From assembly GCA_963783305.1 (NCBI GenBank), contig CAWAMW010000017.1:320001-384000 (forward strand): a stretch of DNA of 64,000 nt. Reading direction: 5' to 3'. Within the stretch, counting starts at the first letter, position 1. Every line of letters starts with the position of its first letter. Positions 5,178-47,959 of this stretch are shown piece by piece. The translations under genes were made by a program, and so were the position numbers. The stretch comes from an uncultured Gemmatimonadales bacterium (lineage in GTDB: Bacteria; Gemmatimonadota; Gemmatimonadetes; Longimicrobiales; RSA9). The notes beneath the pieces are model-generated. The model searched no databases and had not been told where the DNA came from. It saw only the letters and a list, made by a program, of their open reading frames with translations.

Positions 5178-5618
5178 ATGGACGAGAAGGAGTTCGACCT
5201 GACCCTGACGCTCGGGGAGGGGATGCAGTTCGACGCTGCGTTCGATGGCGAGAAGATGGCGAACCTGCTCTTCGACGAGCCGGAGCCGGTGGGAGAGGAT
5301 GAGGGCCCCAACGCCGCGCGCGTCCTGGGGGCCGCCATCGGCAACTGTCTGAGCGCCAGCCTGCTTTTCTGCCTCCGGAAGGCCCGCGTGGACGTGGTGG
5401 GAATGCGCACGGAGGTGAAGGGCACGATCACGCGGAACGAGAGTGGCCGGTTCCGGATCGGCAGGATTGCCGTGAAGGTGCTGACGGAGATCCCACCGGA
5501 AGATCAGAGCCGGGTGGACCGGTGTCTGAAGGTGTTCGAAGACTTCTGCATCGTGAGCGCGAGTGTGCGGCAGGGGATCGAGATCGACGTCGAGGTGGAT
5601 GTCCTGAACCCCGGCTGA
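5178..5618 (+). CDS. OsmC family protein
   Basis: DEPEPVGEDEGPN..LGAAIGNC...FEDFCIVSASV; AAGGAG RBS. Confidence 0.85.
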   Translation: MDEKEFDLTLTLGEGMQFDAAFDGEKMANLLFDEPEPVGEDEGPNAARVLGAAIGNCLSASLLFCLRKARVDVVGMRTEVKGTITRNESGRFRIGRIAVKVLTEIPPEDQSRVDRCLKVFEDFCIVSASVRQGIEIDVEVDVLNPG

Positions 5619-5623
5619 CGGCC

Positions 5624-6160
5624 TCAGACCGCCTGACCGTTCTCCTCATCATAGCGGCGGATCGCGTCCTCGATGGCTTCGATGGCGCGGCCGCGGCCCG
5701 CCCAGCCGCCGGTGACGGTCTCCTTGCCCTCCAGCTCCTTGTACACGGCGAAGAAGTGGTCGATCTCGCGGAGCGTGTGAGGCGGAACGTCCTCCAGCTG
5801 GTGGTACTCGTCCATGTAGGGATCGGAGGTGGGCACAGCCAGGATCTTGTGGTCGATGCCCTTCTCGTCCCGCATCTGGAACATCCCCACCGGGCGGACC
5901 TCGATGAGACAGCCCGGCACCGTCGGCACCGTAATCAGGATGAGCACGTCGAGCGCGTCGCCGTCCTCCGCCAGCGTCCGGGGTACGAAGCCGTAGTCGC
6001 CGGGGTAGTGGACGGCGCTGTAGAGCAGCCGATCGAACTTCAGGACGCCGGAGTCCTTGTCCACCTCGTACTTGTTCCGACTCCCGCCCGGGATTTCGAC
6101 ATAGGCGTTGAGGAGGTCGGGCGGCGCGGGTCCAGCCTTGAGGTCGTGGAGCGGATGCAT
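5624..6160 (-). CDS. ppa: Inorganic pyrophosphatase (family I)
   Basis: RNKYEVDK, YPGDYGF, DGDALDV, DEKGIDHK motifs. Confidence 0.95.
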   Translation of the reverse strand: MHPLHDLKAGPAPPDLLNAYVEIPGGSRNKYEVDKDSGVLKFDRLLYSAVHYPGDYGFVPRTLAEDGDALDVLILITVPTVPGCLIEVRPVGMFQMRDEKGIDHKILAVPTSDPYMDEYHQLEDVPPHTLREIDHFFAVYKELEGKETVTGGWAGRGRAIEAIEDAIRRYDEENGQAV

Positions 6161-6167
6161 CAGCGGC

Positions 6168-6728
6168 TCACATCACCCGGCGGAGCGCCTGCGTGGCGGT
6201 GGCCGTCGCCGCGCCGAACGCGAGGTGGGCCCCCAGCGCCTTGGCGTGGTCGGGGATCGAATGGGCCGTGGGCCCTGCGGACAGGCCCAGCAGCGGCACC
6301 ATGATCTCGTCGCCGAGCACCCATAGCGCGGTGCCATAGCCCAGCCCGGCCACCAGGTCGGGCACATCCGCGGCGGGGCGGAGCGCGCCGTAGAGGCCAC
6401 CGACGAGGACTCCGTAGCCCCAGTGGACCGCCTGGCCCAACTTCTCCTTCGCTTTCTCGTCCGGCTCGTCCCCCGTGGCCGTGTGGTACGCGATTCGGCC
6501 GAGCGCGGCCGTCGCCGCCTCGTCCTCACGGGCCTGACGACCGGAGACCGCGATGTCGTCGAGGGCGTCCTGCCGCTCCACGATGTCCTCCTCGTCGGAA
6601 CCCTGTCCCTCTCCGTTGGAGAGCGCCTGCGACGCGCGGAAGAAAAGTCCCATGACTGCGAGCCCCGCCAGGCTGCCCAGCGCTCCGCGGAGCATTCCGT
6701 TCATGTGGTCACTGTCGATGCGGGCCAT
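6168..6728 (-). CDS. DUF1440-like membrane protein
   Basis: VHWGYG...GLGYGTALWVLGDEIMVPLLGLS...H..ALGAHLAFG pattern. Confidence 0.65.
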   Translation of the reverse strand: MARIDSDHMNGMLRGALGSLAGLAVMGLFFRASQALSNGEGQGSDEEDIVERQDALDDIAVSGRQAREDEAATAALGRIAYHTATGDEPDEKAKEKLGQAVHWGYGVLVGGLYGALRPAADVPDLVAGLGYGTALWVLGDEIMVPLLGLSAGPTAHSIPDHAKALGAHLAFGAATATATQALRRVM

Positions 6729-6871
6729 GGGGCGAGTCCTCCTGCGCGGGACGTGACGAAGCGAGCACTCCCTGCACTGAAGGAACCATGCCAGCATCGA
6801 ACATCGCCCATCGGCTTCTGCACCGAGCCTCAGGGGATCGAAGATCCAGAGTCGCTAGGCGCTGATCGATC

Positions 6872-9109
6872 TCAGGCCACGAGCCTCCACACCTGCGCGA
6901 CCATGAAGGTGACGACGATCCCCATGACCAGCGGCATGAGCGCCGCGACGGTCGTCCATTTCACGCTCCCCGTCTCCTTGTAGATCGTGTAGATCGTGGT
7001 GGAGCAGGGGTTGTGGAGCAGGCTGAAGAGCATCAGCGACACGCCGGTCAGCAGCGTCCAGCCGCCCGCCTGAAGGACCTGCGCCATGGCCATGGTGCTG
7101 TCCAGCTCGAACAGGACTCCGGCGCCCTCCCCCAGGGCCAACCCGGCGCTGAGGACGGTGAGCATGAGGATCGTGGGGATGACGATCTCGTTGGCGGGGA
7201 TCGCCACCACGTAGGCCAGGAGGATCACGCCGTTCATGCCCAGGAGCACGCCCATCGGGTTCAGCCAGTCGATGAGGTATTCGGCGACGCTCGCATCGCC
7301 GATAACGACGTTGGCCGACAGCCAGATCACCCCCCCGGCCGGCACCGCGAACATGACGGCCCTCCAGAGCACGATGAGGGTGCGGTCGACCACGGACGTG
7401 TAGAGGGTCTGGAGCACGCGCGGCGGGCGGTACGGCGGTAGCTCCAGACTGAAGGTGGTCGCTTCACCGCGCAGGACCGTACTCGACAGCATCCAGGATG
7501 CGAGAAACATGAAGAGGATGCCGAGCACCGCGATCCCCACGACGGCCGAGGCGGCCACCAGACCGGCGAGGTGCGGCGGCGCGAGCGCTCCGATGAAAAT
7601 AGTGGCGATGAGGATCTGCGTCGGCCACCGCCCGTTGCAGAGTGAGAAATTGTTCGTGATGATGGCGATCAACCGCTCCCGCGGGCTGTCGATGATGCGC
7701 GTCGCCACCACGCCGGCCGCGTTGCAACCGAACCCCATGGCCATGGTCAGCGCCTGTTTCCCGTGGGCTCCGACCCGCTGGAACATGGAATCCATGTTGA
7801 ACGCGACACGGGGCAGGTACCCGAAGTCCTCCAGCAGTGTGAACAGCGGGAAGAAGATGGCCATGGGGGGCAGCATGACGGCCACGACCCACGCCGTCGC
7901 CAGGTAGACCCCGTCGAAGAGGAACCCGCTCAGCCACCAGGGCATGCCGATGGCATTCCCCGCCGCGGTGAGCAGGCTGTGGCCATGGTCGACGAGCAGC
8001 GTCCCCAGCATCTGCGACGGCACGTTCGCGCCCGCGATGGTGATCCAGAAGACCGCGGCGAGGACCCCGAGCATGATGGGGAGGCCGAGCCAGCGGCTGG
8101 TGAGGAGCTGGTCGAGCTTGCGGTCGAAGCGCTGACCGATCGCCCGGAGCCCCCGCTCCTGCGATTCGTCCGCGATCCGCTGCGCGGCGCCGTACAGCCG
8201 CTCCATGAGTGCGTCGTGGAAGTCCGGCCGGAGGTTCCAGCGCAGCCGGGACGCGGTCTCCAGGACCTCGTTGATAGCCTCCGGCTCCGGCTCGGGCGGA
8301 TCCCCGGTGAGCTGGGCGACGCCCGTGGCGACGACCCCTTCCTCCAGAAACCCGAGCTCGCCTTCCCGCACCGCTTCCTCCACGGCGCCATCGCCATTCA
8401 ACAGACGGAGCGCGACCCAGCGCGGGTTCGCGACCCCCGGGTACGCGCGCTCGATGGCCGGCATGAGCTCACCTACCGCCCCCTCCACCTCCGGCGCGTG
8501 GGCCTCGAGACGGTACGGCGTCGTGGGCCGCTCGCCCATGGCCACCGCCTGCACCGTGTCGAGCAGCAGGTTCACCCCTTCCCCGCTCCGGGCCACCGTG
8601 GCGACGACGGGTACTCCGAGCGTCCGTTCCAGCCGCTCCACATCGATAGAAACGCCATGACGACGCGCCTCGTCCACCAGGTTCAGGCAGACCACCACCC
8701 GATCCGTGATCTCCAGCACCTGCAGGACCAGGTTCAGGTTCCGCTCCAGCCGGCTCGCGTCCACCACTACCACCGTGACGTCGGGGCGCCCGAAGACCAG
8801 GAAGTCCCGGGCGACCTCCTCGTCGGTGCTGCCCGCCTGCAGCGAGTACGTCCCCGGCAGGTCCACCACCTTCACCCGCTGCCCCCGGTGCGCGAACGCG
8901 CCCTCGGCGCGGACTACGGTCTTGCCCGGCCAGTTCCCCGTGTGCTGCCGCAGCCCCGTCAGCGCGTTGAAAACCGTGCTCTTCCCCACGTTCGGGTTGC
9001 CGGCCAGCGCCACCAGGTAGTCCCACCGGTCCGGGCTCAGACCCAGCCGCACCAGGTTCTGCTGCCGGTGCTCGCTCGACGACCGCCGCTCCCTCGTGCG
9101 CGTCGCCAT
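6872..9109 (-). CDS. feoB: Ferrous iron transporter B
   Basis: [37 protein letters not shown] overlap with the upstream gene. Confidence 0.95.
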
Positions 9110-26379: not shown

Positions 26380-26537
26380 GGTAAGTCGCCTGCCGCTCGG
26401 ACGTTGGGTGGTTGTAGGGGCCGACGCAAAGACGGCGAGGATATGGCGTTGGTGGGGAGCGGGGCGTGGCCGGCATCGGCGCACGCGGCGAAGACAATGA
26501 GGATTGGCCAGGCGCCGGGCTTCAGCATTCTGCTCAT
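26380..26537 (-). pseudogene. Degenerate 5' fragment of a second metallophosphoesterase lipoprotein
   Basis: FAACAD...NAIS and CCAACGCCATATCCTCGCCGTCTTTGCGTCGGCCCCTAC resemble the start of the 21963 gene. Confidence 0.5.
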
Positions 26538-26569
26538 TCGGCTCCTGACGATACGTGGGACGGGACGCT

Positions 26570-26596
26570 AGTTACATATATGATGCGTCCGTAACT
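26570..26596. promoter_or_regulatory. Second AGTTAC-N15-GTAACT site
   Basis: Same arms, spacing and preceding CGCT as the 20812 site; lies at the edge of the AT-richer block. Confidence 0.6.
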
Positions 26597-26599
26597 TTC

Positions 26600-27865
26600 C
26601 CCAAAGAAGACCTGCCTGTGAAAACGCACATCCGGAGGCAGTAAGCGTAGGCTCAAGGTCGATAAGAAAAAGATGAACGGACTACTGTCAATCATCGTGC
26701 TTATTAAAGGGCGGAGGTCCAGGCCGAAGTCTACCAGCCAATGGAAAGAGAACGCCGACGCTCCTGTATCACTTAGATATACAAGGTCGAGTAGATCCAA
26801 CATGAACTCGACTGTCTCCCGGCTCAGTTGTCATGCACGACAGGACTTAGTGCTTGCAATCCACTACAACATCACGCTCTTCCCGCAGCGTGTAGAGACC
26901 GACCGCCTGAACTCGACGCAATTGACCTACCCACAGCGACCTGAACTGAAGAAGATTGGCACTATACCAGAAGTAGAAGTATAGAACTACAGCTAGCTCA
27001 GAACGACAATACAGTGTAACAGATCGATCCGTACAAAGACCAACGAATTGTATTTTAGCAAGGATCAGCGGCGAAATCGACTGGTGTTAGGAACACCTCA
27101 CAGGTGATACTCAGACTCTTCACTCTAACATCAATCGGCTGAGAATTGAATTTTCGCGGAGCCGCAAACCTCCGGTACTGGTGCTTCACAACAGGGAAAG
27201 CAGCAAGAAAAAAGAAAGAAAAAGAAGAAAAAGGAAGCAAAGAAAGAAAGACGAAGAACAGCACGGAAGTGGAAAAGGGCAGCGAGGACTCAAGGTCGAT
27301 AGCTGCAAAAGGAGCTCAGTTCTGAATTGCCGCTTGTTAAGATCATGGCTTGCTTGTAGTTCTGATGTGAGCGGTTAAAAAGCTGCTGAATAGACCGGTA
27401 TAGATTCTTGTAAGGATTACCATTGGGTCCACGGTTATAGCATTCTCGAACCTTCGACATTCCCGGTCCGTCTTTGCTAAGATCCTCCTTAACTGTCTAA
27501 CAACTCTTTCTTCTCGACTTCACTGAAAGACGCCGAGCTGACGAGCAAGATCTCAGTTCTGAAATTCAAACCTGATGTCGACGAAGACTTTGGGTGTCCG
27601 AAGAGTCCACTCCCAGTGGATCAGGTTGTCCGAGTCGTCACTGCGAAGAAAGTTCTGTATTACGTTGGGTGGGCTGAACCGAGCGAGATAGCAATAAGGT
27701 CTGCTGGCCTGATTTCATTCTCTATTATCCAGCGGTACTGTACTTTGACTGCGGGTTAGCGGTAAACAGCTCTGCGATCTCCTTCTGACTAATGTTTCCC
27801 AACTAGAGAGGTATTCTGAGTCCACCATACCGTTGAAACCAGTGAGTGGGAATTTCTGATTCCAT
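26600..27865 (-). pseudogene. Heavily frameshifted AT-rich hypothetical CDS, possible HEPN-like Rx4H motif
   Basis: Protein-like pieces WIIENEIRPADL, IQNFLRSDDSDNLIHWEWTLRTPK, NPYKNLYRSIQQL, SQPIDVRVKSLSITC, RIDLLH; ATG 27865 lies just after the attC-like site; 3' end approximate. Confidence 0.5.
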
Positions 27866-27869
27866 GGCC

Positions 27870-27982
27870 CGCTAACGCCACTTCGGAGGCTGCAGGCCAA
27901 CCAGCGCCGAACAGCTCGCTCGACTACTAATCAAACAGCGGCTTCGCGCCCGCTCGTTCTGCCTGGATTCCGTCCGTTATGC
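27870..27982 (-). other. attC-like integron cassette recombination site
   Basis: Minus strand GCATAAC...GTTAGCG, about 113 bp, between a stop codon (27999) and the next ATG (27865); internal symmetry is imperfect. Confidence 0.5.
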
Positions 27983-29292: not shown

Positions 29293-29349
29293 CCGCGCTT
29301 ACCACTTCCCCCTATCGACCAGCGCCACGACCCCCGGCACCTCAAGCGC
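29293..29349. repeat. 57-bp diverged direct repeat of the R-M gene 3' end (33534-33590)
   Basis: Manual gap-free alignment: 46 of 57 positions identical. Confidence 0.8.
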
Positions 29350-29391
29350 GGTCCAGCTCGTTGTGGACTTTCCTCCACCCGACGGTCTCCA

Positions 29392-30087
29392 CTAAACAAA
29401 TCCCCGATCACCTGTCCAGTCGGTCGACGGAATGCCGTCTGCAACGCCACGAGCCTCTAGGAGATAATGCGGAGACAGCACCGCGTACCGCCAAAAGACA
29501 AGATCCACGACCCGCACTAGATCTCCCGACGTTGCCGCAACATCGCCGCAGAGTTCCTGCACCCCTACACCGAACGCTTCGGCTAGTCGAGCCACGTGTC
29601 GGTCCGGCTTGGCCACATCAAGGCTCAAGTTCTTTGCGAAGTGGAAGGAGGTCGCTCGCCCCAAATAGGGAAAGGTCAATAGGAATTCGGGTCCCTCTGC
29701 ACCTAAACGACATTTGAATGCTGCGGCCCCCATTTCAGCGAGACGACTGGCAAAGACGGCGATGGCGTCAATTTTCCCAGCGTGGCCGAAATGATCGAGC
29801 GCCTGCCGTTTACACTCTTTGGACGACTGGGCAATACACTTAGCCGATCTCCAGTCACAAAACGCCCTGCTGATTTCCGGAAAAATTGAAGCAACGACCA
29901 CCTCCTTCATACCAGACCCCAGCACGACCCAAGCGTGCTCACGTAGGAGATCCGACTCAGTACAGTCCGATAGGTCCACGGTCCGAATCCATTCCATCTC
30001 GTCGCCGTATCCAGAAGCGACCACGACCCGCTTCGAACGGGTATATAGTTCTGTCACTGCCTCCAACATGAACGGATAGAGAGCCAT
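29392..30087 (-). CDS. OGG-like HhH DNA glycosylase family protein (type IV CBASS Cap11-like)
   Basis: FGHAGKIDAI, FPYLGRATSFHFAKNLSLDVAKPDRH, VDLVFW; last gene of the operon. Confidence 0.75.
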   Translation of the reverse strand: MALYPFMLEAVTELYTRSKRVVVASGYGDEMEWIRTVDLSDCTESDLLREHAWVVLGSGMKEVVVASIFPEISRAFCDWRSAKCIAQSSKECKRQALDHFGHAGKIDAIAVFASRLAEMGAAAFKCRLGAEGPEFLLTFPYLGRATSFHFAKNLSLDVAKPDRHVARLAEAFGVGVQELCGDVAATSGDLVRVVDLVFWRYAVLSPHYLLEARGVADGIPSTDWTGDRGFV

Positions 30088-30095
30088 GGATCGCG

Positions 30096-30683
30096 TCAAG
30101 TCGACCTTTTCTGTGCGCCGGTGTTCAATTCCTGTCGAATGAAGCGGAGCCGTAAGATCCATTCGGGTGTCCACAAATACTCCTCGCGGATGCGGCTAAG
30201 AGCGACCTTACGGAGATGCCTCGCCTTCAATCTAGCAAAGAGATCCTCCGGTATGGCGGGCGTGCTACTTCCTACTTCACGATAAAGTGCCGCCAACTGA
30301 TTCCTCGATACAGCATCCCAACCCTTTTCCTGGTCACGGCGGGTCCGGTACTCGCTTGCCAACCCCGCCCAGCGGCGGCACGCCTCGCCATGACGCGCCT
30401 TTTTCCCAGGCCAATCGAACAGCAGAACTATGAGCGAGAAGGTGAAAGCGACCACTGACCCACCCGCCAGCACCGATCTTCCTTGCTGCACAGAAAGATC
30501 AAAGAGGCTGAATAGCTCGCCTCCACTGAAAGCCGTAACCGTGAAGAGAACGGAGACAACAATCAACGCACTCCCAGAGAGAACTTCAAGCCTTCGATAG
30601 CGATCTCGCAGAGCAGCGTGCATCGAAGCCATTTGCTTCGTAAGCCGGTATTGGCGCGCAGTTTCACCCTCGGGGACAGTCAT
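30096..30683 (-). CDS. Two-TM SLATT-like CBASS membrane effector
   Basis: MHAALRDRYRR then two TM helices, DW..KKARH, IPEDLFARLKARHLRKVALS; ATGA-coupled to the CD-NTase. Confidence 0.78.
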   Translation of the reverse strand: MTVPEGETARQYRLTKQMASMHAALRDRYRRLEVLSGSALIVVSVLFTVTAFSGGELFSLFDLSVQQGRSVLAGGSVVAFTFSLIVLLFDWPGKKARHGEACRRWAGLASEYRTRRDQEKGWDAVSRNQLAALYREVGSSTPAIPEDLFARLKARHLRKVALSRIREEYLWTPEWILRLRFIRQELNTGAQKRST

Positions 30684-31604
30684 GAGCGCTCCAATGAAAT
30701 CTTTGCCCTCCATTGGGCAATAGTTGCGGCTGTTGAAAGTTGAGTGTGGATAGATCGGAGCAGCGCGGCCACGCGCCTTCGTTCGTCGCTCCCAGGCCCT
30801 CTGAGCTCTGCGTCGACGACGGCCTACTGTCCGATAACGTCAGTGATTGGTCGGAGGACCCGCTCGCTGGAATGCTGAAGCACATGAAGGACTACGTCCC
30901 GCACGCTGCGATCACCCTTATAGCCCGCGGCCGAATCGACCGCTAGCGCCTCTATGTGATATCCCGACAGCCGCCTCTGCTTCGGGAGACCTTCATTTAT
31001 GGCCTTGATCACTTTCACGGCTGGCACGAGAACCCCGCCGGTCTGATTGTTGGCTGCAGTCAAGCGCTCGCGAAAGAGCCGAGGCTTCGATACACGCCAG
31101 CCCCCACTTTCTGCATCAGGAACAGCTACCGTGTCCCCCTGCCGTAATGCCGGCAGCAACTGCACTTCCGTGCCGTCCCGGTAGGTGACCGTAACTGCCA
31201 TATTTCCGCGCGAGATGGTGTCGACGTCTCCGAGGTTAAGATTGACGCGGACCTGCCGTTCCAAAGATTCCAGCATTCTCTTTCCCAGTGGCGGCACCGA
31301 CAGCCGAAGCATCGAGCACAACGAGTGCATTGATGTCGCTAATCCCGTCGACGGCTGTGTGCTTCGCCACCGACCCTCCGAGCAGTAGCGAATCGATCTC
31401 GAGGTCCCCTAGTGACTGCTTGATTTCCTCGAGCCGTTTCCTAACCCTGTCATGATCACGATCGTTGAACTTCGCTAATTCTTCTCCCAGGTATTGGTTC
31501 GTTTCCGCTTGGAGGCGACGCTGCTCGGCCTGCCGGGCCCGCTCCACCTTCAATCGGGTGCTTTCACTAGGTGTGCCACTGAACCTGCTGCCGCCGCCCC
31601 CCAT
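30680..31604 (-). CDS. CD-NTase/SMODS cyclic oligonucleotide synthase, interrupted by one frameshift (about 31290) and an in-frame TAG (30824)
   Basis: MGGGGS N-terminus, LGGSVAKHTAVDGISDIN, EVQLLPA, PAVKVIK, LSGYHIE; read-through of TAG ends at TGA 30680, overlapping the effector ATG. Confidence 0.82.
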
Positions 31605-31605
31605 A

Positions 31606-32681
31606 TCATCCTCCTTCCTGCAGTTCAGGTATTTTTGTGGTCATATGCCTGTACGCAGCGGCCAAACGCTCCTTCACAAATGGCTGGAACATGTCGAACT
31701 GTTCGCCATCAGTGTCGACCCACTGTTCCAGTGAGGCGGCCAGATTCAGTAACGCCTGTACATTGTGTAAGTTGGCCAACATCTCGTTGACGGTCTTGCC
31801 CACAAGCCCGAACTCTTCCCGGAGAATCCCATGACATTCTCTGCTCACGGCCACCCCTTTGTGATACGAGTAGCGGAGCCAAGACACGCCATCAAAGATT
31901 TCGGCACCAGCGAAGAAATACAGTGGGGTCAATAGGGGGTCTAATCCTCCCCATATATGAATCGGAGAATCTATTCCCGCGTCGTCCAAACCCCTTCGGA
32001 GAGTTGCCACGCTCTTTAGGCGCTTCACCATGTCCCTACCCAACTCTTTTTCGGTGACGCCTATTACGTCGAAATTGCGAAGCTTCGCGAAATCTGACCT
32101 TGTGAGGTCGCTCGGGTCCACAACGCCCCCCGACTTGGTCCAAGGCTTGATAATGAAATCAGTTAGTACCTCTCCGCGCCAGGGAAGAAACAAGACGCGG
32201 GCTTTCTTGATCTGTTCGTGAAGTGGAATGTTGATGCTCTCGTGATCGTAGTTCGCTACGACTAACGGCAGGTCAGAATCAGCTAGAACTTGATCAACTA
32301 CTGTTTGATATTCTTTGTTGCCGAATCCCGGCTTCGGCACGTATACGAACGACTTGGGCTCAGTTGAGTCAAAGCCTCCGGCCAACTCATAACCGCCGCT
32401 ATCCATGAAAACGAGGCTTGCGGACAGCAGCCAATCGGCCGGGCTGCCTCCTTCCGCGTTAGGTCCTCCGAAATGATCAAAATGCAGGTCGTAGGCGCTA
32501 ATGAGGGTTGACTGGCCGCCCAGTTTCGGCCACTCAGCAGATGAACAACTACATCGCTGTACTCCCTGCCATCCTTATCGCGATGGAATTGGAAGCCCTT
32601 GCTGGTAAACGCTGGCACTAGGAGGGGCAGTTCGATCCGCCCCGACCATGGATGATGCAGCGTGCCGCGACGAGCTAGCAT
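31606..32681 (-). CDS. TGT (queuine tRNA-ribosyltransferase)-like protein, type IV CBASS Cap10-like; frameshift at about 32540
   Basis: PLLVPAFTSKG, LISAYDLH, FMDSGGYE, IHIWGGLDP, GAEIFDGVSW. Confidence 0.78.
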
Positions 32682-33270
32682 AGTCCGATTCCGTTTCTGT
32701 CGATGCACGAGATGCATTCACCACAAGGCTCCGATCCTCGCTCACAACCGTATGTCATTTCAATGGGAACCGAATGTGAGGTACAGAACTCTGCAATTTC
32801 AGCCTTACTGAGTTCAATGAGCGGTGCGATGATTCTCACTGGCCTGCCCACCGCGTGCACTAGGAGCTGTTCAAGGACTCTGATGAATACAGGCTGACAA
32901 TCGGAATACGGGCTATCGCTACGGATTCCAAGTGCCACCGCGTTGATGTGCGGCCCGCTTTCAAGCAAACCCAGAGAACAGAGCATGAGGTTTCTCGCAG
33001 TGATGAAGCCTTCCGTCTTTTGTTCAGCACCCACAATTTTCAGTGTTTTAAGTGGGACCTGATAGTGTTTGGCCAGGGAGATGGCAGCGGCTCGTTCGGC
33101 CGTCGCGGCGGGGTGCCCGTAGTCGACGAAGAGAGTTGTCACCGGCCTTGCAAGCTCTGAGAAGAACGCAAGGCAGGCCGCTGAATCGACCCTCCGCTTA
33201 GGAGCAGGACGATTTCCGCGGCTTCTGGCGCGGGTGTGCCGGGCGCTCCGACAGCCGAATCTCTATTCAT
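32675..33270 (-). CDS. QueC-like ATP pyrophosphatase (type IV CBASS Cap9-like); 1-nt frameshift at about 33191
   Basis: LLLSGG/VDSAAC restored by one extra G; DYGH..E, ARN, YSDC, SKAEI, CERGSEPCGECISC Zn motif. Confidence 0.85.
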
Positions 33271-33497: not shown

Positions 33498-36400
33498 TCA
33501 ATTTCCCGGCGCTGTTATGACCCCGACCCCACCCCGCGCCTGCCACTTCCCCTCCTCCACCCTCGCCACCACCCCCAGCACCTCCAGCGCCTCGAAGTGC
33601 TTCTCCACCTCCGCCCGCACCGCGCCCTTGAACCGCCGGGCCGCCTGCTCGACGGTCCGGGGCTTGTCGGCGACAGCGGTGCGGAGGGCCGTGAGCTGCT
33701 CGATGGGGTCGTCGGGCCAGTCGGGGAGGTCGGTGGGGGTGTCGTCGTCGGGCTCGGCGGGGGCGTCGTCGAGGGCGAGGTCGCCTTCGACCTTGTCGCC
33801 GAAGCGGGGGATCTGGTAGTCGGGGCGGAGCCAGCGGACGAGGCCGCGTCGCTCCTCCTCGACCCGCTCGTCGTGGAGGGCGACCAGGCGGGCGAGGATC
33901 TCGTCGGTCTCCATGGGCCACGGCCAGCCGTAGGCGTCGGCGACGAGGCGGTCCAGCTCGTCGTGGAGGTCCCGGAGCACGCCGCACGCGGCGATCTCGT
34001 GGACCTTCCGCTCCTTCTCCGTCAGCGGCTCCCCGCTCCGCAGCTTCTCGACGACGTTGTACATGCCGGTCATGGTGACGGAGTCTGTCGCGGTCGAGGG
34101 CGGCGTTGCGGTGGGATTCGAGCTGCTCGGCGACTGCTCGGCAATTACGTCCGCTTGCTGCTTCCGGTACGGTCAGGGAACGGGAACGGGTCGAAGCAAC
34201 TGGTCTTGTTGTAGACAGGATCGTTCCCCACACCTAGCCGCCCGCCGGCCGCCAATGCCCACTCGACGTGAATGCGTGAAGACAAGAACGCCAAGCGCAA
34301 AAGCGTCGTCCGACGCCACACAAACGAGCCTGTCTCATCCGGAACGATATCAGTCGACAGGAACGTGAAAAATCGGTGCTTTGCTGTGTCATGTAGTCCC
34401 GATATACTGCTCAAGTCCTCGCAGTGCCTCTCTGAGCTCGGGGCGCTGGCTCGCCAAAGCGCCACCAGTTACCTTCGTCGGCGTTCCATCCTGTTCGTGT
34501 CTCGCTGCGGCTTAACGCGCGTCCGCACGATGATCGTACAGAACAGGGATATTCTCGCGCTTCGTCCTCTTCCCGGAGGCCAAAATCGATCACCCAAACG
34601 CTGCGCGGCCGCGTGCGGTCAGATCCTTCCCATTGCGATACTGGCCGCACCACATCTGCGATGCTCGGAGTCCTGTCCGAGTAGTTCGCTCGGCTTCTTC
34701 ACGCTTCCAGGATGAAACCCGGAGCCGCACAGCGTGAAGCCCTGCTGAAGACAATCCATTGTTCGCCAAGAAGTGCTCCCGAACTGCCGCCGGCGATATC
34801 GGCGTTCATCGTAAGGTCCGCGTTCAGTCTGTCGAGACAGTTCGTTCGCGCGATCTCCTGCCGTCCTCTTCGATCGACAGTGACCAGCGGGCACTCAGCG
34901 TCGTTGCTGCCGAGATCACCGTCATGGCCACTCGGACATCAGCTCCGTCCGATCTCATCCACCCACGGGTGATCCGCACGGCCCAGATGACCTCGCACCT
35001 CGTTCAGCATGGCGTCCTCGACAACTGTTCGATTCTGAGCCTGGGTGATTGAGTTCGTCGTGATGAGTCCCGCCGTCTCGGTTGCTCCTGTGGCCACCGC
35101 TTCCGCAGCCCGGTACCACCAGTACATGACATAGTCCGCGCTGTTCGAGGCACATCCGGATATGCCTTCCGCAAGGCGTCGACATAGCCATCGCCAAACG
35201 CTTCTCGTCTGCATCCTGCCCCATATACGGCGGGTTCCCCACAATGAAATCCGCCTCCGGCCATTCCGCCTGCCTCGCCCCCACGTACTCGTAGTACGGC
35301 AGCCTCGCCTCGGGGTCGGGGACGAGGTCGCCGGTGACGGGGTGCGGGATGCGGGGCGTGGGGTCGGGGCGCGACTTCTCGGGGACCTCGCGGATGTCGT
35401 CCCAGGCGAGGACGGCGTCGCGGTGCTCGAGGGTGCCGGTGTCCTGGAGGACGGGCTCGGGGGGCTGGGTGTGCTGGTGGGTCTTCTTCCACCACTGGTG
35501 GTAGCCGACCCAGAGGCAGAGCTCGGCGACCTCGCGGGCCCAGAGCTTGACCTCGATGCCGTGGAACTGGTGGGGGCCGACGGGGTCGACGTCGTGCTCC
35601 TTCTGGCCGGTGATCTCCTCGATCTCCCGTGTGACCTCGAGCTCGATCTCCTTGAGGAGGTTGAGGGAGACGTAGAGGAAGTTGCCGGACCCGCAGGCGG
35701 GGTCGAGGACGCGGATGGAGCGGAGGTAGTCGTGGAACGAGCGGAGTCGCTCGACGGCCTTCTTCCGGGCGGGCGCGGTGCCGTGCTCCCGGAGCTGGAG
35801 GACCTCGGCCTGGACGAGGGTCCAGCGCTCGCGGACGGGCTCCTCGATGGTGGGGCGGACGAGTCGCTCGACGTAGGCGCGGGGCGTGAACTCGGCGCCC
35901 AGGCGGTGGCGCTCCTCGCGGTCGAGGGCGCGGGTGAGGAGGGTGCCGAAGATGGAGGGCTCGACGTGGGCCCAGTCGGCGCGGGCGGCCTCGAGGAGGA
36001 CGGCGAGGGCGTCGCGGTCGAGGGGGATGACGTCGCGGTCGTGGAAGAAGTGGCCGTTGAAGCGGAGGACGTGGTTGTGGCCGAAGTCGCCGCCGGCGTC
36101 CATGGTCGCCCAGAGCCGGTCGACGGCGCCCTCGAAGGCGATGGGCTCCTCGCTCAGCCCCTTCTCCACGGCGATGGTGAACGGGTCATCCTTGAGCAGC
36201 CCCACGTCCTCGGCGAACATGGTGAAGACGCAGCGGATGAGGAACCGCGCGACGCGCTCCTGGTCCTCGCCCGTGGCCTCGAGGCGGGCGGCGAGCTTCG
36301 CCAGCTTCGTGGCGATCTCGCGGGTCACCTCCGCCGACTTCACGTTGGGGTCGAGGCGCTTCGGGTCCTCCCAGACCAGGCGGAGGAACTCGACATCGTC

Positions 36401-36865
36401 GGGGTTCTGCGCCAGGCGGGTGAGGTCGATGGTGCGGACGGCGCCCTGGAACCCGCCGTAGGAGCCGGCCCAGCGGTCCCAGAGCCGGAGCGTGCGGCCC
36501 ACGTCCAGGACCATGAGGTAGGGCGGCGGCCCGCCGGGGACGAAGGCGGCGTAGGAGGAGGCCTGGCCGAAGGCGCGGCGGAGTCGGAGCTCGGCGCTCT
36601 CGTCGGTGCGCTCGGGCTCGTCCTTGGACTCCAGGAGGAAGTGGCCCTCCTTGAAGAGGTCGACGCGGTTGGCCGACTCGGACCCGTCCCGGTTCACGAT
36701 CCGGACGGCGAACTCGAACTCGTAGCCGGAGCCGGACGGGCGGGGTCGCTCGACGCCCAGGGCCTCGCAGAGCTCGATCACGTACGACTGCGCGTTGGCG
36801 AGCTCCTTCGCAGGAACGTCGCGCCAGCGGTCGGCGAGTGCGGAAAGGGCGTCTTCGCGGTTCAT
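33498..36865 (-). CDS. MmeI-like type IIL/IIG restriction-modification enzyme; several frameshifts at about 34070-35250
   Basis: ELANAQSYVIELC, VDLFKEGHFLLESK nuclease, IFGTLL, LDPACGSGNFL motif I, IVGNPPY motif IV, ADYVMYWW, LDRLVADAYGW C-terminus. Confidence 0.88.
33534..33590. repeat. Coding copy of the 57-bp direct repeat
   Basis: Encodes ALEVLGVVARVEEGKWQAR; matches 29293-29349. Confidence 0.8.
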
Positions 36866-47103: not shown

Positions 47104-47959
47104 CACTTCGCCGCTCCGAGGGCGCGGGCGAAGGCACGAGCGTTGAAGCGCATGAGCGAGAGATAGTCTTCGCGGCCGGGCATCGACGCGCCGCCCACGG
47201 GATCGGCGACCTCGACGCGCGCGCGCAACTCGCTGGCCAGGGCGTCCACACCGCCGCGGCCCAGCTGCGGCTCGGCGATCACGGCGGACACCTGCCGGGC
47301 CCGCGCCTCGTCCACCAGCCGCGCCAGCGCCCGGGTGGCGATCTCGCGGCCGGGCGCAGCGTGCACCACCCCCGCGGGGATCAGGTCATAGCGCTCGGCG
47401 AAGTACACCCACGCCGGGTGTGCGGAGACGAAGCGGCGGGAGGGCGCGTGGGCGAGCATGGCGCGGATCTCCGCGTCCAGCGCGGTGAGGGAGTCGGCGT
47501 ACGCCGCAGCGCGGCCGCGGATCGCGGCGGCGGAATCGGGCTCGAGCTGCACGAGCGCCTCCGTCAGCGCGGGAGCAGGATGTCACGAACGCGGATCGGA
47601 TCGAGCCAGACGTGGGGGTTGTCGGCCACGAGCTCCATCCCCTCTGTGAACACTACCGTGGGGATCCCGGTGGGCGCGCCGACCCAGGCGTCGGCGGCGC
47701 CACCGGCACGCACCAGCAGGTCGGCGGCCGCGATCGCCTCGGCGTCGCGAGGAGTCGCTTCGTACGTGTCGGGATGCGCACCCGGCGGCAGCAGCGTGTG
47801 GACGCTGACGTGCGCCCCCGCGACTGCCTGGACCACGCTCGCCAGCGGGTGGAGCGTGGCCACGACGGCCGGACCGGTAGCGGTTTCGGCGGGAAGATCA
47901 TCCCTTCCACAGGCCGTCAGCAGGGCCGGAAGCAGAAGGATCAGCGCTAGAATTCGCAT
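47103..47959 (-). CDS. Zn/Mn ABC substrate-binding lipoprotein (ZnuA-like); 1-nt frameshift at about 47572
   Basis: LTAC lipobox, HPDTYE, NPHVWLDP, then in another frame ALTEALVQLEP...SAHPAWVYFAERY. Confidence 0.85.

Follow-up and report, generated by a model that had tools for sequence, protein, structure and literature searches.

The minus strand of the 64-kb stretch of DNA analysed here (the window) carries, between positions 33270 and 29392, five coupled genes that encode Cap9 (QueC-like), Cap10 (TGT-like), CdnD, a 2TM effector, and Cap11 (OGG-like). By its gene content this locus is almost certainly a type IV CBASS. We put at roughly 60% the probability that the operon, likely acquired horizontally by a Longimicrobiales bacterium, is a type IV CBASS and is intact in the living cell. 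Structural and genetic descriptions of type IV CBASS have already been published; the present locus probably adds a new host lineage and points to a way in which such an operon may have entered.

The five genes are tightly coupled, as a sequence-only reading of 29392..33270 had claimed, and are joined throughout by overlaps or gaps of 1–8 nt. The stop codon of cap9 (32675..33270; ~198 amino acids when read through), which encodes a QueC-like ligase, overlaps the start of cap10 (31606..32681; TGT-like protein of ~358 amino acids), and a gap of 1 nt separates the end of cap10 from cdnD (30680..31604; CD-NTase of ~308 amino acids). The cdnD stop codon overlaps the ATG of the gene for the 2TM (SLATT-like) effector (30096..30683; 195 amino acids), the stop codon of which lies 8 nt before the start of cap11 (29392..30087; OGG-like protein of 231 amino acids). 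A tRNA search of the window found none. Promoter-like sites were sought and not found, a single weak terminator-like site scored below chance, and no homologue of the ORF at 29082-28378 was found among proteins of near length.

PADLOC CBASS models match all five genes when ORF fragments are used without repair, at levels that far exceed chance expectation: QueC at 1e-41 for cap9, TGT at 5e-58 for cap10, PDLC00790 at 7e-22 and 5e-44 for two pieces of cdnD (which also matches NF041117), the 2TM effector model at 3e-26, and OGG at 9e-69 for cap11. The sequence-only reading had described the operon as type IV CBASS-like and hidden by frameshifts. Its type assignment is borne out by the PADLOC models, by matches to the structures 9NTN and 9NTO, and by the fold of CdnD. 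Three genes are indeed frameshifted, but "hidden" is an overstatement, since each component matches its PADLOC model unrepaired. According to the preprint on the described system (bioRxiv 10.1101/2025.04.06.647259), type IV CBASS consists of Cap9, Cap10, and a CD-NTase whose N-terminal tail reads M(G/S)G(G/S)GG; Cap11 is optional and occurs in about one-third of 49 operons. The CD-NTase, Cap9, Cap10, the N-terminal tail, an adjacent effector, and Cap11 are all present in the window.

A search of the PDB with the QueC-like fragment gave Cap9 of 9NTN/9NTO as the best match (3e-25 for 9NTO Cap9); Pfam QueC matches at 2e-21. The Zn motif CERGSEPCGECISC lies at 32746 with its cysteines kept, whereas the pyrophosphate-binding motif SGGxDS, which had been listed as seen, is split by a frameshift (~33188) and readable only across it. 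Cap9 has been described as a minimal QueC of ~185 amino acids with an H(x)4YxDC motif (PMC13082051); in the window, Arg replaces the His of this motif, a residue that all 53 motif matches of related loci retain. The Cap9 fragment reaches 59 bits against the canonical QueC model TIGR00364, far under its cut-off of 150 bits, and the queD-like and queE genes of the host are not linked to the operon; a queuosine biosynthesis operon was therefore rejected. Cap10 carries the motifs DSGGYE at 32403 and IFDG at 31899, both of which had been noted before. Alignment to 9NTN Cap10 shows equivalents of all six residues named in the preprint (D73, S74, D122, K154, H226, and D248; bioRxiv 10.1101/2025.04.06.647259), and 51 of 52 invariant columns are kept. 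The sole PDB matches of the Cap10 fragment are Cap10 of 9NTN/9NTO (3e-33 for 9NTN with an alignment).

CdnD begins with MGGGGS at 31604, preceded by a GGAGG that resembles a Shine-Dalgarno sequence, and contains the previously noted LSGYHIE motif at 30970. Both nucleotidyltransferase fragments have CdnD of 9NTN/9NTO as their sole PDB matches (2e-9 and 6e-30 for 9NTN). The CD-NTase fold, the absence of which the sequence-only reading had named as refuting, along with a failure to match type IV CBASS profiles, was recovered in an AlphaFold model of a 150-residue central piece built from a 16-row alignment (pLDDT 85), which replaced a poor single-sequence model (pLDDT 60). Foldseek placed type IV CdnD chains (9NTN/9NTO) in the top three positions and ranked MiD51 and other CD-NTase structures below them. 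Neither of the two refuting outcomes was thus observed. The effector contains two hydrophobic stretches that start near residues 31–41 and 69–73, and it matches SLATT_4 at 5e-7, under the cut-off. Comparison of cap11 with an 84% identical contig from read run X6 revealed 51 differences, and 21 of the 29 listed fall at third codon positions.

Frameshift-aware alignment to profiles of 12–15 homologues per gene mapped five lesions in the stored sequence, all confined to Cap9, Cap10, and CdnD, whereas the frames of the 2TM gene and cap11 are unbroken. Three are one-base frameshifts at short runs, in cap9 (~33188), cap10 (~32536), and cdnD (~31283). The other two are substitutions in cdnD, each of which would disable the gene: an in-frame stop codon (TAG, 30826-30824) and an Asn codon (31331-31329; SDIN) in place of the second catalytic (metal-binding) Asp. 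Related loci have Ser at the TAG position in 60 of 71 cases and a stop codon in 0 of 71. Since 82 of 82 related motif matches read SDxD, the Asn is a lesion, and SDxN, which had been given as the nucleotidyltransferase motif, is not that of the family. In the described system, D94A/D96A abolished defence (bioRxiv 10.1101/2025.04.06.647259). On account of these five lesions, the stored sequence lacks open frames in cap9, cap10, and cdnD as well as one of the two metal-binding Asp residues of the CD-NTase, and the operon as stored cannot work. Repair of the indels, the step proposed by the sequence-only reading, is insufficient by itself because the stop codon and the Asn remain. That reading did not mention the TAG. 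A change of genetic code seems improbable, as adjacent genes use TAG as their stop codon and the one internal TAG stands opposite Ser. All lesions were read from the stored assembly; the best read run contains 7% of its words. The read runs give short pieces from relatives, one of which spans the Asn codon, and the Cap10 and CdnD indels and the stop codon lie outside their cover.

The adjacent type IIG (MmeI-like) restriction-modification gene, on the minus strand at 33498..36865 (PADLOC PDLC03627, 2e-199 and 7e-52), bears on the origin of these lesions. Frameshift-aware alignment to homologues from two genomes (G050 and G014) revealed 23 frameshifts within 1.13 kb (35211-34083), with homology alignable throughout, whereas 1.65 kb before and 0.55 kb after this segment are free of frameshifts. 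Uniform decay would yield such clustering with a probability of ~1e-11. The damaged segment is the lower-GC part of the gene, and in contigs from other samples 34080-35220 is either missing or exchanged for different sequence; it may be a variable region for target recognition that few reads cover. Core genes contain ~1 plausible frameshift in 113 genes (146 kb) compared with a genome of the same genus, a count that leaves out 17 stops and two of three frame changes, which closer inspection traced to the ends of genes or to ORFs called in the wrong frame. Because the type IIG frameshifts are clustered, their flanks clean, and the core genes nearly clean, we favour, with moderate confidence, the reading that the lesions are errors of a locally poor long-read consensus rather than real decay. 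A SusD-like gene in another low-GC accessory island of the assembly is likewise split across frames. Among the observations that count against error, some low-GC islands carry intact frames of 1100 amino acids, and two substitutions that would each disable CdnD are many for random error. The cap9 break is bridged, with one more base, in an ~89% identical X6 contig; this contig, of depth 2.2, belongs to a relative and therefore reflects the ancestral state rather than that of the present cell.

It is possible, although we think it the less probable case, that a true type IV CBASS recently turned into a cluster of pseudogenes, with loss of Cap9 being toxic and selecting for inactivation of cdnD. 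Such a history would account for the three lesions in cdnD, including the stop codon and the Asn, and it accords with the increased toxicity reported upon deletion of Cap9 or Cap11 in the described system (bioRxiv 10.1101/2025.04.06.647259). The proportion of changed invariant columns (15 of 170) lies at the top of the homologue range of 0.6–8.9%, genes broken across frames likewise turn up in at least 3 of 97 related loci, and the nearly clean core genes indicate that the assembly is not noisy overall. Decay of the operon, however, leaves unexplained the 23 frameshifts packed into one part of the adjacent gene, and it sits poorly with the intact 2TM gene and cap11 and the near-complete conservation of Cap10. 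That the stored stretch is instead a mosaic consensus of several strains' cassettes, in an arrangement found in few or no cells, is very improbable: error density does shift abruptly at GC boundaries, and the skipping or replacement of 34080-35220 in other samples is what a variable region would give, but the five genes are translationally coupled in a conserved order and the flanking repeat links the cassette to the adjacent type IIG gene. We give least credence to a natural Asn that would define a CD-NTase variant with altered catalysis. SDIN stands directly in the sequence, but the uniform Asp of related loci, the loss of defence in the D94A/D96A mutant, and the two further breaks in the same gene all speak against it.

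The host is a member of the Longimicrobiales (Gemmatimonadota), judging from RecA, whose named neighbours almost all belong to Longimicrobiales or Gemmatimonadota; this agrees with the Gemmatimonadota-like host proposed earlier. The operon has a GC content of 55.9% compared with 68.9% for the genome. A Cap10 model found no match in 40 relatives (0 of 37 when three unpublished genomes are left aside), and in 400 genomes of the phylum it found two weak matches, neither with a CdnD homologue in the 13 kb examined. Because of this low GC content and absence from relatives and phylum genomes, the operon was likely gained horizontally, as the sequence-only reading had held for what it called an AT-richer copy. 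The best Cap10 protein match is 57% identical, and the donor was not found. A literature search on type IV CBASS and Gemmatimonads found no such report; the main text of the preprint contains no Gemmatimonad. The locus would therefore extend the range of type IV CBASS to Gemmatimonadota, probably an unreported host group.

A search with a Cap10 alignment, the patterns of which were biased to the subclade of the window's Cap10, provided 97 related loci: 17 from named genomes and, out of 97 found in metagenomes, the best 80. The five genes occur in identical order in 55 of the 97, and in 45 of the 54 with room on both sides. Named hosts (n = 17) include Aminicenantes, Binatus, Planctomycetota, Verrucomicrobiota, Acidobacteriota, Armatimonadota, Deltaproteobacteria, Woeseiaceae, and one Bacillota; 16 of the 17 are not Bacillota and none is archaeal. 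Millman in 2020 is said to have found type IV CBASS mainly in archaea and Firmicutes. That view, which had made the present host seem surprising, does not fit the spread of hosts found here. The preprint likewise speaks of "diverse bacterial phyla and archaea" and tested three proteobacterial operons (bioRxiv 10.1101/2025.04.06.647259).

Shortly after cap11, the 3' end of the type IIG gene recurs as a degenerate copy with an internal deletion (29293..29367, minus strand; blastn E 3e-9 within the window, and 9e-10). The copy comprises 57 nt that are 81% identical to 33590-33534, the last codons of the gene, preceded by a 19/20 match to 33967-33948 in an earlier part of it. The CBASS cassette is thus bracketed by the type IIG 3' end and its copy, which suggests that it entered through recombination at that end. 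We compared 22 related type IIG loci, picked for downstream room out of 40 matching genomes (one unpublished). A same-strand remnant at E < 1e-8 is present in 2 of the 22, and a clear defence gene within 6 kb in one (HEC-05), as judged from 72 downstream ORFs with a crude filter; the type IIG 3' end is accordingly weak as a general defence hotspot. In a contig from run X2, the end of the type IIG gene is separated by 1.4 kb of different sequence from a second piece. It is tempting to speculate, although we consider it unlikely, that the conserved type IIG 3' end serves as a recombination landing pad that swaps defence cassettes and the target-recognition segment among strains and leaves a 3' remnant, here bringing a deazaguanylating system into a QueE-positive lineage that lacks QueC. 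If so, Cap9 would be the sole QueC-family user of its substrate in the host.

The host genome encodes FolE, QueD-like proteins, and QueE (6e-87), and it could therefore supply 7-carboxy-7-deazaguanine. A search of the genome for canonical QueC or QueF found neither. Other models had matched QueE weakly, but its presence rules out a host that lacks QueE and depends on phage-made substrate. The following steps are transferred by homology from the Rhizobiales system; the window and genome contribute the gene identities, motifs, gene order, and host substrate genes. Cap9 would use ATP to adenylate host-made 7-carboxy-7-deazaguanine and attach it to Gly2 in the MGGGG tail of CdnD; deazaguanylation of such a tail is reported for the described system (bioRxiv 10.1101/2025.04.06.647259). 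The TGT pocket of Cap10 may then bind the modified tail and keep CdnD inactive. Upon phage infection, CdnD would be activated to produce a cyclic oligonucleotide, which would switch on the 2TM effector, so that the membrane is disrupted and infection aborted. Membrane disruption by CBASS 2TM effectors is established, and a review states it for such effectors of type I CBASS (PMC10002423). Cap11 would dampen the system, in line with its reported role in limiting toxicity while being dispensable for defence (bioRxiv 10.1101/2025.04.06.647259).

The importance of this locus is modest. A second copy was not found in 400 sampled Gemmatimonadota genomes, and for the main questions, namely how CdnD is activated and what Cap10 transfers to, it is no better than intact homologues. 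Lesions piled into the accessory defence DNA of an otherwise clean assembly would skew tallies of how many defence systems are intact and how many have decayed.

The closest described relative is the Rhizobiales type IV CBASS (Wassarman et al., bioRxiv 10.1101/2025.04.06.647259; PDB 9NTN, 9NTO), which likewise comprises Cap9, Cap10, CdnD, and Cap11 and shares with the window the M(G/S)G(G/S)GG tail, the Cap10 residue equivalents, and the SxGxDS motif and Zn site of Cap9. CdnD is 41–46% identical to Rhizobiales type IV CdnD over the aligned piece. The window differs in its Longimicrobiales host, in which canonical QueC and QueF were not found, in the five stored lesions and the Arg in place of His in Cap9, and in the position of the cassette behind a type IIG gene and between repeats. 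Five-gene loci of Aminicenantes, Binatus, Bacillota, Planctomycetota, and other groups (among L002-L018) resemble it in order and spacing, with 28–57% protein identity; unlike the window, related five-gene loci are mostly unbroken, and ~11 related loci lack the 2TM gene between cdnD and cap11. QatABCD and canonical QueC have the QueC-family fold in common with Cap9, and QatC likewise deazaguanylates a partner protein (PMC13082051). QatABCD differs in its QatA ATPase and TatD-like gene, which are absent among the five genes of the window, and the canonical QueC and TGT enzymes of queuosine synthesis are also distinct from the operon, the housekeeping tgt and queA genes of the host being located elsewhere, on contig C16.

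The host genome (G000) carries folE, queD-like, queE, tgt, and queA genes together with a QueG-like motif; searches of the same genome for QueC and QueF found neither. QueE, required for host supply of 7-carboxy-7-deazaguanine, has model matches in 31 of 40 relatives of G000 (28 of 37 when unpublished genomes are set aside). The canonical QueC model matched none of the 40. The occurrence of QueE without a canonical QueC match in Longimicrobiales may reflect an unknown replacement for QueC or a different use of the substrate.

The type IIG restriction-modification gene upstream of the CBASS operon contains 23 frameshifts, all of which fall within its lower-GC central part (window 35211-34083), and its flanks contain none. 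Homologues of this gene at L064-L066 and L068-L070, loci from genomes G028, G032, G034, G038, and G058, break at contig ends. The breaks occur at similar positions in several genomes (residues ~234-246), all within one family, which suggests that a repeat or inserted element lies at these residues in that family. A low-GC Fic/SoFic-like gene (window 38088-37126, minus strand) is located upstream of the type IIG gene. It covers profile positions 7-280 of 361 and apparently lacks its C-terminal part.

The minus-strand gene at window 29234-28000 is fragmented. Its C-terminal part matches the model of the predicted pPIWI-associating nuclease domain (PF18165, 1e-6); for its 234-amino acid N-terminal piece, no homologue was found among proteins of near length. 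The lowest GC content in the window (43-51%) occurs at 26500-27900, a segment that has no long frame and includes a T/C-rich low-complexity run at ~27200-27260. Two loci lie in other low-GC regions of the G000 assembly: L075 (contig C12, 2483-4839), an apparently fragmented ABC-three-component-like defence locus, and L078 (contig C17, locus positions 5585-7164), which contains a SusD-like gene split across frames. Among 113 genes compared, a single plausible core-gene frameshift was retained, at window ~47495-47570.

Two Gemmatimonadota loci, L092/L145 (G133:C14) and L093/L144 (G211:C67), contain TGT-like, OGG-like, and QueC-like genes, and no CdnD homologue was found in the 13 kb of sequence covered at either. 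By eye, one of these loci has a putative TIR-like domain fused to TGT, and the other has a putative SLATT-like gene upstream. In a set of related type IV loci (L007, L008, L160, L168, L171, L172, L177, L184, L219, L220, and L226), cdnD is followed directly by cap11 with no intervening 2TM gene. No candidate effector is evident in some of these 2TM-less loci; the others have different candidate effectors positioned upstream or downstream.
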